A stretch of DNA of 60,593 nucleotides from Candidatus Giovannonibacteria bacterium (GTDB lineage: Bacteria > Patescibacteriota > Minisyncoccia > JACPKW01 > UBA11713). This document shows, piece by piece, positions 6,307 through 42,618 of this stretch (position 1 is its first letter; each line of letters opens with the position of its first letter). The stretch covers positions 196,237 to 256,829 of the forward strand of contig JACPKW010000004.1 of assembly GCA_016186825.1 (NCBI GenBank). The letters are read 5' to 3'. Both the position numbers and the translations under genes were made by a program. The notes beneath the pieces were generated by a model, which saw only the letters and a program-made list of their open reading frames with translations, ran no database searches and was not told the DNA's origin.

Positions 6307-6341
6307 CCCGTTTCGGTGCGATCGAAACGGGCATTTTTTAT
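6307..6341 (+). terminator. rho-independent terminator (copy 1 of an identical pair)
   Basis: CCCGTTTCG-GTGCGAT-CGAAACGGG followed by CATTTTTTAT. This 35-nt string is identical to 7663-7697. Confidence 0.8.
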
Positions 6342-7662: not shown

Positions 7663-7697
7663 CCCGTTTCGGTGCGATCGAAACGGGCATTTTTTAT
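7663..7697 (+). terminator. rho-independent terminator (copy 2 of an identical pair)
   Basis: Same 35-nt string as 6307-6341. The ORF-track start at 7653 translates this hairpin and is therefore unlikely to be real. Confidence 0.8.
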
Positions 7698-10578: not shown

Positions 10579-10616
10579 CCTGCCTACCCTGCCTGCCGGC
10601 AGGCAGGGTAGGCAGG
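10579..10616. repeat. perfect 38-nt GC-rich palindrome (family shared with 42460-42479)
   Basis: CCTGCCTACCCTGCCTGCC|GGCAGGCAGGGTAGGCAGG lies between the predicted promoter and the Fic start codon. The core CCTGCCTGCCGGCAGGCAGG is identical to the one at 42460-42479. Confidence 0.9.
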
Positions 10617-10629
10617 ATATATCAGAAAT

Positions 10630-11688
10630 ATGAGCGAAAACAGCTTCAACAAACGAATAAAATTAAGCCAGGAGATACTTGGCAAGATCGCTAAAATTGA
10701 CGAGTTCAAGGGTCTTTGGCATGGCAGTTTAAGGCTAAGCCCTCAAATTTTGGGTCGGCTTAAGTCATCGGTGATCATTACGTCTACCGGTGCCTCAACC
10801 CGTATAGAAGGATCGAAAATGAGCGACGAGGAAGTGGCTCGTCTTTTGCGTGGTCTGAAATCTAATCCTCCCAAGAATCGTGATGAGCAGGAAGTCGCCG
10901 GTTATGCCGATTTACTCGGAAGAGTTTTTGACCACTACCGCACGCTTAAATTGACCGAGAATAATATTTTGCATTTCCATAGCATTCTTTTGCAATTCTC
11001 TAACAAAGATCAATCGCATAAAGGCAAGTACAAGGACTCCGATAATGCGGTGGTTATGAAAAATGAGAAAGGAGAAGAGATTGTTCTGTTCAATCCGACT
11101 AAACCTTATTTAGTCAAGCCAGAAATGGAAGCGATTATTGACTGGACAAATCAGGAGCTCGAAAAGAAAGAACTCCACCCCGTGCTTATCATTGCTAACT
11201 TTGTCTTTGAATTTTTGGCTATTCACCCGTTTCTTGATGGCAACGGCCGTCTTAGCCGCGCCCTGACAAACTTGCTTTTGCTTCGCAACGATTATGCCTA
11301 TGTACCGTATGCTTCGCTTGATGAAATTATTGAGGAACGCAAGGACAGTTACTATCTCGCTCTCAGGGCAACGCAAAACAATCACAAAACAGAGAATGAA
11401 GATATTACGCCGTGGCTGAATTTCTTGCTTGATGCATTGCTGACTCAAGGCGATGTTGCTCGAAAACTGATGAATGCTGAACAGCCGGAAAAGCTTTTGT
11501 CCGAAAGACAAGAGCAGGTTTTCGCTATCCTAAAAGACGGCGAAACATTGGGCGTGGCAGAGATCGACAAACGTCTCAATGGTTCTGTGCCGCAGGTTAC
11601 AATCAAACAATCTCTCGCCAGATTGGTGGCTTTGCGTTTGGTTGAACGAGTCGGCCAAGGCAGGGGCGTGAGATATAAGAAAATATAA
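10630..11688 (+). CDS. Fic/DOC family protein with C-terminal winged-helix-like domain
   Basis: Canonical Fic motif HPFLDGNGRLSRALTNLLLL, a Fic_N-like N-terminus, and a C-terminal segment (GVAEIDKRL...LARLVALRLVERVGQGRGVRY) typical of wHTH. Confidence 0.85.
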   Translation: MSENSFNKRIKLSQEILGKIAKIDEFKGLWHGSLRLSPQILGRLKSSVIITSTGASTRIEGSKMSDEEVARLLRGLKSNPPKNRDEQEVAGYADLLGRVFDHYRTLKLTENNILHFHSILLQFSNKDQSHKGKYKDSDNAVVMKNEKGEEIVLFNPTKPYLVKPEMEAIIDWTNQELEKKELHPVLIIANFVFEFLAIHPFLDGNGRLSRALTNLLLLRNDYAYVPYASLDEIIEERKDSYYLALRATQNNHKTENEDITPWLNFLLDALLTQGDVARKLMNAEQPEKLLSERQEQVFAILKDGETLGVAEIDKRLNGSVPQVTIKQSLARLVALRLVERVGQGRGVRYKKI

Positions 11689-42104: not shown

Positions 42105-42132
42105 TTATATGCGCTTGAAACTCATATTATTG

Positions 42133-42205
42133 TCCGCCCTGCAGGGATCGAACCTGCGACCTTCTCCTTAAAAGGGAGCTGCTCTACCAACTGAGCTAAG
42201 GGCGG
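42133..42205 (-). tRNA. tRNA-Lys (anticodon UUU)
   Basis: Hand-folded cloverleaf: CCGCCCT-UA-GCUC-AGUUGGUA-GAGC-A-GCUCC-CUUUUAA-GGAGA-AGGUC-GCAGG-UUCGAUC-CCUGC-AGGGCGG-A. Features are a 7-bp acceptor stem, G18G19, the T-loop UUCGAUC and no encoded CCA. Confidence 0.85.
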
Positions 42206-42206
42206 A

Positions 42207-42443
42207 TTATGATAATTTTTTTAAGAATTCTTTTCCAAAACCTGATTTTAATTTTTTTTCTGCGTCTCTTGCCTCTTTTCGTGAGCCGATTTCCTTTTCA
42301 AATATTAGAACCCACGGACGATATGCTTTTGTCGACTTTGTTTCCCCATTATTATGAGAAACCAATCTTTTTTTGGGATTCTCACTTATCCCAACATAAA
42401 TCATACCATTCACATAACTTTTTATTGCGTAAACTGAATACAT
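42207..42443 (-). CDS. GIY-YIG nuclease family protein (COG2827/UPF0213-like, 78 aa)
   Basis: MYSVYAIKS...GMIYVGISENPKKRLVSHNNG...R.WVLIFEKEIGSRKEARDAEKKLK has GIY...YVG, conserved Arg, and Glu in the EKKLK helix. The stop codon is 1 nt from the 5' end of tRNA-Lys. The track's N-terminal extension translates a tRNA fragment and a palindrome. Confidence 0.8.
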   Translation of the reverse strand: MYSVYAIKSYVNGMIYVGISENPKKRLVSHNNGETKSTKAYRPWVLIFEKEIGSRKEARDAEKKLKSGFGKEFLKKLS

Positions 42444-42453
42444 ATCACCATGA

Positions 42454-42500
42454 CTGCTCCCTGCCTGCCGGCAGGCAGGTACCAACTGAGCTAAGGGCGG
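42454..42500 (-). pseudogene. partial duplicate of tRNA-Lys 5' portion (nt 1-27) interrupted by a 20-nt palindrome
   Basis: The minus strand reads CCGCCCTTAGCTCAGTTGGTA (tRNA nt 1-21), then CCTGCCTGCCGGCAGGCAGG, then GAGCAG (nt 22-27), and then diverges into the GIY-YIG upstream region. Confidence 0.8.
42460..42479. repeat. 20-nt GC-rich palindrome CCTGCCTGCC|GGCAGGCAGG
   Basis: Perfect palindrome with the same core as 10579-10616. It sits exactly between positions 21 and 22 (D-loop/D-stem junction) of the tRNA fragment. Confidence 0.9.
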
Positions 42501-42618
42501 GAATTCTAGGATTTTATACTTTATTCTTAATGTTTTCAAGCAGTCTTGTAAAACAAATTATCAATAGCGATTGTTAGTATGTAAATTAAAGGTCTAATAG
42601 TTGGTAAATATTATTAAT

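Follow-up and report, generated by a model that had tools for sequence, protein, structure and literature searches.

What places a gene for a 78-amino-acid (aa) GIY-YIG nuclease between a truncated and an intact copy of one tRNA gene? The question is raised by positions 42133 to 42500 of a 60,593-nucleotide (nt) stretch of Candidatus Giovannonibacteria DNA (contig JACPKW010000004.1; the whole stretch is called the window below), where the minus strand carries, in order, tRNA-Lys nt 1-21, a 20-nt palindrome (PAL), tRNA nt 22-27, 10 nt, the 78-aa GIY-YIG open reading frame (ORF), its TAA stop codon, 1 nt and an intact tRNA-Lys(UUU). This layout, with the GIY gene lying between partial and complete copies of the same tRNA, had been described in a first-pass annotation, and it proved correct to the base by sequence, ARAGORN, Rfam and Pfam. 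We propose that the locus is probably, though by no means certainly, a member of a widespread three-part module that consists of a minimal GIY-YIG nuclease of the UPF0213/Ssn/SLX1 branch, a cognate PAL and a partly duplicated tRNA gene, and for which we infer a mechanism below. Such a module is apparently undescribed and would represent a tRNA-embedded variant of the nuclease/hairpin principle of Ssn-like proteins. Its parts in the window are as follows.

42511..42539, minus strand: promoter-like site TTGAAA-17-TAAAAT (consensus scan, 10/12 matches)
42480..42500, minus strand: truncated tRNA-Lys(UUU) copy, nt 1-21 (acceptor 5' strand, D-stem 5' strand, D-loop), identical to nt 1-21 of the intact gene
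42460..42479, no strand: PAL, CCTGCCTGCCGGCAGGCAGG, a 20-nt perfect palindrome between tRNA positions 21 and 22 (sequence and 54/56 homologous loci)
42454..42459, minus strand: truncated tRNA copy continued, nt 22-27 (GAGCAG), D-stem 3' strand; tRNA homology ends 6 nt beyond PAL
42444..42453, minus strand: 10-nt spacer TCATGGTGAT ahead of the ATG, with a possible weak ribosome-binding site (GGTGA)
42207..42443, minus strand: 78-aa single-domain GIY-YIG gene (Pfam PF01541), ATG at 42443-42441 and TAA at 42209-42207
42206, minus strand: single T separating the GIY TAA from the tRNA
42133..42205, minus strand: intact tRNA-Lys(UUU) (ARAGORN, 42132-42205; Rfam RF00005, 69.3 bits, full model)

PAL interrupts the tRNA sequence exactly at this locus, with no target duplication, and neither the 27-nt tRNA 5' segment nor PAL occurred in 100 dinucleotide shuffles. 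ARAGORN calls tRNA-Lys(UUU) as the sole tRNA of the window, the 78-aa ORF is the window's sole GIY-YIG ORF, and Rfam returned no match besides the tRNA at the locus even at E ≤ 10. As had been noted at first pass, no integrase or other element gene accompanies the nuclease, whose ORF stands alone between repeats that are 300 nt apart. We considered and rejected a 110-aa ORF with a TTG start as the real protein, because its extension is translated fragment and palindrome, read in other frames in other loci.

Homologous loci were collected by a family-motif scan using one genome per species, which gave 56 loci (individual loci are cited by L numbers). These span at least five phyla (Patescibacteria, Bacteroidota, Omnitrophota, Ignavibacteria and others), and the Bacteroidota loci include 13 Flagellimonas/Muricauda/Allomuricauda isolates or metagenome-assembled genomes. 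In 40/56 loci a tRNA on the same strand begins -45 to +130 nt relative to where the ORF match ends, and in a further 7 a same-strand tRNA ends just upstream of the ORF; the association with tRNA 5' ends, suspected from the window alone, is therefore general. All 47 adjacent tRNAs are co-directional with the GIY gene, and the tRNA types represented are Asn, Lys, Leu, Thr, Phe, Met, Gly, Arg, Ile and Pro. At 11 loci, U8-A9-G10 of the tRNA itself serves as the GIY stop codon (offset -10), which accounts for odd protein C-terminal tails such as AVAQW and SGVAQR. In four loci of full context where no tRNA was called, a tRNA-Asn is in fact present but split after its anticodon. The tRNA-Asn(GUU) downstream of GIY in L021 (3267-3550) holds a group I intron after the anticodon-loop CTGT (RF00028, 84 bits), and similar tRNA-Asn inserts in L007, L009, L014 and L025 were not confirmed at the Rfam threshold; ARAGORN misses intron-interrupted tRNA-Asn genes.

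The upstream fragment in nearly every locus is the adjacent tRNA's own 5' end, with local alignment scores far above controls for most. Across loci, the duplicated segment ends anywhere from nt 12 to nt 46 or more and 4-26 nt past the palindrome, and fragments in the window's own Lys(UUU) clade end at nt 27, 37 or 45, which removes the earlier suggestion that tRNA position 27/28 is a defined insertion point. A composite arrangement is present in L047, where a nested remnant located ~140 nt upstream of the GIY start comprises nt 1-12 of the resident tRNA-Asn, a 46-nt GIY 5' remnant, nt 1-20 of a foreign tRNA-Asn identical to the L005 type, and PAL, after which resident-like nt 21-30, the intact GIY gene and the resident tRNA follow.

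We also observed, at L046 3234-3305, a tRNA-Lys(CUU) with an unusual D-arm, TAACTTAATGGTAAAGTA; the PAL-bearing fragment next to it has a D-arm of canonical form and an anticodon arm resembling that of Lys(UUU). This arrangement could be a target escape or an imported fragment.

Allowing up to 4 edits, PAL lies within 200 nt of the ORF in 54/56 loci; it does so across phyla, and its place is always within the truncated tRNA copy, so the palindrome can no longer be viewed, as it was at first pass, as an element that struck the fragment later. Counted from the side of the palindrome, 295 kb of sequence hold 57 copies, of which 44 are found no more than 150 nt upstream of a GIY start. At GIY loci it splits colinear tRNA sequence exactly and without target duplication, after tRNA nt 7 or 9, after nt 15 (tRNA-Leu), after nt 20/21 (Asn, Lys, Phe, Met) or after nt 23-26 (others). 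tRNA homology ends 4-27 nt from PAL on its GIY-facing side in both orientations of the module, and the distance from PAL to the ATG is 14-30 nt. PAL folds into an 8-bp stem with a CCGG loop and in predicted RNA is stacked on the tRNA D-stem as an extended hairpin, but the RNA folding energy is unexceptional relative to shuffles (z -0.36), and structure alone is thus no evidence. Sequence variation is limited to rare compensatory variants, and the variants at GIY loci include nested and tandem copies. By analogy with known nuclease/repeat pairs, we propose that PAL may be the built-in partner of the nuclease, its cognate hairpin.

A second 20-nt insert, GTCATGCCTACGGCAGACAA, is found in L019-L045 (Flagellimonas/Muricauda) at position -1 of tRNA-Leu(UAA) and of its fragment. 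It is a reverse-complement relative of the PAL-B family, CCTGTCTGCCGGCAGGTAGA, and is carried independently by either copy, fragment or intact, by both or by neither; through this scattered presence, palindromes flank the GIY gene on both sides in some loci. A literature search returned no relevant paper with the palindrome or its substrings, and a search for target-site duplications around solo palindromes gave no consistent signal, with a few of them lying within tandem repeats.

The module also occurs in other arrangements. Mirror loci have the order intact tRNA, GIY, a few tRNA bases, PAL and tRNA 3' part, with PAL just after the stop codon and positioned in the D-loop (L043), at 26/27 (L031, L023, L012), in the anticodon loop (L036) or in the T-loop (L048). 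The emphasis that had been placed on the tRNA 5' half is thus borne out for the window, which duplicates the 5' end, but not for mirror loci, which duplicate the 3' part. Tandem units or arrays are present at L031, L043, L117 (×2), L123 (×3) and L155, and PAL-bearing tRNA fragments without GIY stand beside intact tRNAs at L037, L044, L051 and L012.

A GIY-independent sample was obtained by seeking GGTA-PAL-GAGC in metagenome contigs, which returned more than 120 stretches; 84 sites were analysed. A GIY gene follows at ~41 of the 74 evaluable D-loop PAL sites and does not at ~33, where fragment and intact tRNA occur without GIY; the first-pass annotation had set this down as an outcome against its reading, although PAL is present at these sites. 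GIY-less sites comprise a fragment, PAL, 4-19 nt of tRNA, a 10-96-nt spacer and a complete tRNA, at times in arrays. The breakpoint lies 4-19 nt past PAL at 58 D-loop sites, whether GIY is present or absent, and the fragment acceptor stem is identical to that of the adjacent tRNA at 21/29 GIY-bearing and 11/29 GIY-less sites. Among 25 distinct GIY-less spacers, a single one has kept a start codon and the C-terminal GIY peptide, indicating an internal deletion derivative; simple deletion as the origin of GIY-less forms is thus supported in this single case. Removal of PAL restores a complete tRNA at only 2/84 sites, and one of the two, L149, has a PAL-bearing complete tRNA-Ile followed by a second, different, self-consistent tRNA-Ile. 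Together, these cases suggest that PAL is a simple insertion that survives only beside another functional copy.

Solo PALs were found in loops of unrelated hairpins, including terminator loops, and inside other PALs. One such copy is in the window.

10579..10616, no strand: solo PAL nested in a variant palindrome, together a 38-nt perfect palindrome (exact PAL at 10588-10607)

This palindrome, CCTGCCTAC...GTAGGCAGG, is intergenic, and 13 nt separate it from the downstream ATG of a Fic/DOC-like ORF (10630-11688), with no tRNA or GIY gene close by. A second exact copy in the window indicates that PAL is a dispersed element in this genome. Viral contigs (mostly 45-68% GC) contain exact PAL 42 times, once in a canonical module. 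One viral contig (L087 2239-2330) carries PAL in the variable loop of a full-length phage tRNA-Met that is still called as a 92-nt tRNA, and PAL may be tolerated there as an extra tRNA arm. The same insertion, with the T-arm deleted, was seen at L064 8616.

With regard to inheritance, GIY clades follow tRNA identity (Leu in both orientations, Lys clades, Asn clades, Phe and Arg-CCU), with changes of tRNA type seen at 68-74% protein identity. The window protein's closest homologue is 78% identical to it and lies in the same arrangement beside a tRNA-Lys(CUU), in another genomic neighbourhood. Among 11 syntenic Flagellimonas loci the median ratio of nonsynonymous to synonymous substitution rates (dN/dS) is 0.067 at dS 1.2, and the ORF retains 83% nucleotide identity versus 53% for the 30 nt before the ATG, with PAL retained. 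The low dN/dS and the conservation of PAL beside a drifting spacer show that protein and palindrome are both maintained by selection. Genomes in the scan usually have one GIY locus, as the 60-kb window has one copy. The family numbers 3,418 representatives (50% identity) at E ≤ 1e-10, and translated PAL is present in 24 of the top 150 representatives, typically after a translated tRNA D-arm.

Two further features of these loci and proteins were recorded. In L057-L062, the loci of the closest homologue, the module is followed immediately, downstream of tRNA-Lys(CUU), by a gene of the AIPR (abortive-infection phage resistance) family. The family members P0039, P0089, P0178 and P0088 either hold two GIY-YIG stretches within a predicted protein of 171-214 aa or form part of a 655-aa one, perhaps because tandem modules are read as a single ORF.

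What kind of nuclease is encoded? The 78-aa protein is a single domain, matched by Pfam GIY-YIG PF01541 over residues 1-71 (E 9.5e-16; 22.6-bit cut-off), with no extra DNA-binding domain. Its C-terminal motif is LKSGFGKEFLK. Homologues are 74-96 aa long, and across 28 homologues Y5, Y16, R26 and E62 are invariant and H30 nearly so. Among solved structures, those closest in sequence are UPF0213 (1YWL, 1e-7; 1ZG2, 1e-5), then SLX1 and the I-TevI catalytic domain, and the NCBIfam group I intron endonuclease model scored only 17.8 bits against a 56-bit cut-off. UPF0213 proteins (YhbQ, EF2693, BH0048) and SLX1 share the minimal GIY-YIG fold and are the best solved-structure matches, but neither a cognate repeat nor a link with tRNA has been described for either. 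SLX1, which requires SLX4 and contains a RING domain, acts structure-specifically on branched and stem-loop DNA.

The first-pass annotation had likened the locus to homing endonucleases; a better precedent is the Ssn family of single-domain GIY-YIG nucleases that act on single-stranded DNA (ssDNA) under the guidance of hairpins (CDD cd10448; Chenal et al., Nat Commun 2025, PMC11893778). Ssn genes are flanked by cognate hairpin repeats (NTS/SRM), which are bound as ssDNA only and cut a few nt upstream; SsnA has 94 aa with catalytic Y6, Y17 and E64 and does not bind RNA, SsnA/NTS modulates natural transformation, for which domestication is proposed, and tRNA is absent from the paper (PMC11893778). 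The two families are alike in being single-domain proteins of less than 100 aa with equal spacing of the catalytic residues (Y6/Y17/E64 in SsnA versus Y5/Y16/E62 here), in lying beside their own hairpin-forming repeat, in having dispersed solo copies of it and in occurring in several phyla. They differ at the C-terminus, where the window protein has the motif LKSGFGKEFLK and Ssn-type proteins have KKW-R-WK..LIE..NP-W-DL, and in the repeat: PAL is perfect and symmetric, falls outside the SRM pattern, is usually present as one copy on one side of the gene, and is embedded in a truncated tRNA copy beside an intact tRNA. Activity of the window protein is predicted.

For comparison, NTS-flanked Ssn-type genes were recovered from viral contigs with the NTS motif (L267 7823-8134; L290, L218 and L288); the Neisseria-type motif occurs in more than 118 stretches of IMG/VR. 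The window protein shares 31% identity over 65 aa with an NTS-flanked Ssn-type protein (pairwise E 2e-8), with catalytic residues aligned; the Ssn paper asks for E < 1e-10 against N. meningitidis SsnA. The family profile scores 27-43 bits on Ssn-type proteins, similar to 28-35 bits on UPF0213 structures. Because it lacks the Ssn C-terminal module and is ~20 residues shorter, we treat the window family as an Ssn-like sister family and not as a demonstrated member. Literature searches for GIY-YIG proteins with tRNA genes, tRNA fragments or palindromes returned only mitochondrial and phage homing systems.

The module's position also bears on its expression. The promoter-like TTGAAA-17-TAAAAT ends ~10 nt before the tRNA fragment begins, and a consensus scan found 6 promoter-like sites in the region versus 1.3 expected. 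This site is presumably the native tRNA-Lys promoter, from which fragment, palindrome, GIY and tRNA would now be read as one transcript. The 1-nt gap between stop codon and tRNA leaves no space for a separate tRNA promoter, and together with the promoter-like site upstream of the fragment it upholds the earlier suggestion that the tRNA is transcribed through the nuclease gene. The module would thus borrow the promoter of its tRNA, with fragment, PAL, GIY and tRNA co-transcribed and the tRNA freed by RNase P. At loci whose stop codon is part of the tRNA, processing would yield a non-stop mRNA, implying that translation precedes processing or that expression is low.

How might the three parts act together? 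By analogy with SsnA, the nuclease would recognise the PAL hairpin in ssDNA and cut a few nt beside it, and, as PAL is symmetric, a cut would be possible on either side. Only where a tRNA copy is redundant could PAL persist, and the points near it at which the tRNA is truncated would be scars of nuclease cuts, after which unequal or illegitimate joining kept or regenerated one intact tRNA. The GIY gene may spread or persist next to PAL by means of its tRNA-derived flanks, acting as conserved homology arms, which would explain clades bound to one tRNA type with occasional switches.

Several observations weigh against this account of a nuclease paired with PAL in a tRNA-bound module. PAL and GIY are separated by locally derived tRNA sequence, so that one continuous stretch of mobile DNA cannot be delimited. 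An empty-site allele of the window locus was not found among metagenome contigs and four groundwater sequencing runs: the contigs held 0 matches to an exact joint between the upstream flank and an uninterrupted tRNA-Lys, and the runs gave no clean empty-site joint, with contigs breaking at the tRNA repeat. The 166-aa protein of a neighbouring gene, tried as a lead to an orthologous locus, returned no relatives besides itself. On viral contigs, 41 of the 42 PAL copies have no GIY gene nearby, which indicates that PAL needs no GIY in cis and that another enzyme could be its partner. The fragment acceptor stem differs clearly from that of the adjacent tRNA at 6/29 GIY-bearing and 11/29 GIY-less sites (17/58), and for these foreign stems a purely local break-and-repair origin is inadequate. 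The SRM consensus HGTCWYN(0-2)YYVSBRHN(0-5)WNVSBRGN(0-2)RNCYNB had 0 matches in 301,505 nt of GIY loci, nor did PAL with its typical flanks match it on either strand. Specificity for ssDNA and the predicted cut position are extrapolated from a 31%-identical protein with a different C-terminal module. Lastly, purifying selection and vertical retention in Flagellimonas would fit a domesticated or host-useful function equally.

Beyond the pairing itself, we tentatively raise the possibility that PAL is itself mobile, a 20-nt hairpin that the 78-aa nuclease moves or maintains in trans and that inserts precisely, with no target duplication, into single-stranded hairpin loops, prefers tRNA loops and thereby drives tRNA gene turnover.

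A different explanation, which we judge unlikely, is that the nuclease is a domesticated guardian or regulator akin to RAYT/REP or to SsnA/NTS in its limiting of natural transformation, for which the tRNA site is a safe, highly transcribed niche, the fragments are neutral and mobility has been lost. The strong purifying selection, the syntenic position in 11 Flagellimonas species, the single GIY copy of the window and of most genomes and the dispersed solo PALs are all in keeping with such a role, which also has a precedent in the proposed domestication of Ssn and its part in transformation (PMC11893778). RAYT/REP (REPIN) systems resemble the present one in having a short, GC-rich dispersed palindrome and a single-copy, vertically retained enzyme gene under purifying selection and flanked by its own repeat, with recognition of ssDNA hairpins presumed. 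Patescibacteria, moreover, are thought to be naturally competent. The RAYT enzyme, however, is an HUH tyrosine transposase (IS200/IS605-like Y1) rather than a GIY-YIG protein, so the resemblance is functional only, and REPs, unlike PAL, are extragenic and untied to tRNA fragments, with REPINs being paired repeats. A neutral niche is also hard to reconcile with close GIY relatives at different tRNA genes and neighbourhoods, with tandem arrays and internally deleted derivatives that look like ongoing turnover, and with fragments bearing foreign acceptor stems, and it leaves the constant place of PAL inside the adjoining tRNA fragment unexplained.

Classical intronless homing, in which a double-stranded tRNA gene is cut at a fixed position and the nuclease gene is copied in with a replacement 5' segment, an unrelated palindrome arriving later, appears distinctly improbable. 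It would readily produce a GIY gene between partial and intact tRNA, with a C-terminal tail and stop codon that are often tRNA-derived, clades specific to a tRNA type, and the chimeric fragment with nested remnant of a second GIY copy in L047; T4 SegB, a GIY-YIG homing enzyme in a tRNA cluster, provides a precedent (PMC2330249). SegB and I-TevI share the catalytic domain of the window protein, lie among or beside tRNA genes and possibly owe their inheritance in part to flanking homology; they are, however, proteins of ~200-250 aa with DNA-binding domains that cut double-stranded DNA, and they have neither a cognate palindrome nor a partial duplication of the target gene. Mobile endonuclease ORFs of mitochondria bring a replacement gene end and displace the resident fragment, as in the C-terminal duplications of fungal atp6 or cox1. 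Here too an endonuclease lies between a displaced partial and a regenerated copy, and its ORF can run into host-derived sequence, but the targets are protein genes, 3' ends are duplicated, there is no palindrome partner and the systems are organellar. Against homing, the identical PAL in 54/56 loci across phyla is incompatible with an independent later hit, and the duplication ends variably even inside one clade. In addition, the target would be restored along with the regenerated tRNA, a DNA-binding domain is missing from the protein, mirror and GIY-less forms exist, and the long vertical retention at a dN/dS of 0.07 is atypical of a pure homing cycle.

It is very improbable that the arrangement works at the RNA level, with fragment and palindrome forming a 5' leader (in mirror loci, a 3' trailer) that stabilises or attenuates GIY mRNA after tRNA processing. 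REP hairpins are known mRNA stabilisers, and the stacking of PAL on the D-stem in predicted RNA, together with its location shortly before the ATG or just past the stop codon, would suit this function. Yet the identity of the PAL sequence is far stricter than a hairpin needs, the folding energy does not stand out from shuffles, and solo PALs occur in many unrelated contexts, including viral contigs of 67% GC; SsnA, for its part, does not bind RNA (PMC11893778).

A remnant of an integrase-type integrative element or an assembly artefact has negligible probability: elements with tyrosine integrases that target tRNA genes do leave a partial tRNA duplication flanking the insert, their hallmark, and a regenerated tRNA, but here the insert is 240 nt without integrase, the 5' rather than the 3' end is usually duplicated and PAL sits within the fragment, and the same structure is present in isolate genomes of different laboratories (at a syntenic site with natural variants), in many independent assemblies and in four sequencing runs at even depth.

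Apart from the module, the window contains an exact 35-nt direct repeat, CCCGTTTCGGTGCGATCGAAACGGGCATTTTTTAT, at 6307-6341 and 7663-7697, 1.36 kb apart, which comprises a terminator-like hairpin and a T-run.

If the pairing of nuclease and PAL holds, the Ssn principle reaches a second, shorter family with a symmetric 20-nt site and thousands of members, including members from the Candidate Phyla Radiation, and the principle of a tiny nuclease with its hairpin would be tied to tRNA genes for the first time. It would also account for many tRNA fragments that stand alone in annotations, for partial tRNA copies in tandem and for odd tails at the N- or C-terminus of predicted GIY-YIG proteins, and a compact nuclease with a defined site would be a possible ssDNA tool. 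The locus offers a testable case of a selfish or domesticated element residing inside essential single-copy genes without destroying them, and the presence of the module in culturable Flagellimonas makes experiments feasible. Should PAL in addition prove to be a mobile hairpin, it would rank among the smallest mobile DNAs and, with its nuclease, would make up a new class of selfish elements that live in tRNA genes, spread across bacterial phyla and phages, one in which a nuclease/hairpin pair breaks, duplicates and replaces tRNA genes while its own expression is secured between a tRNA promoter and the regenerated tRNA.

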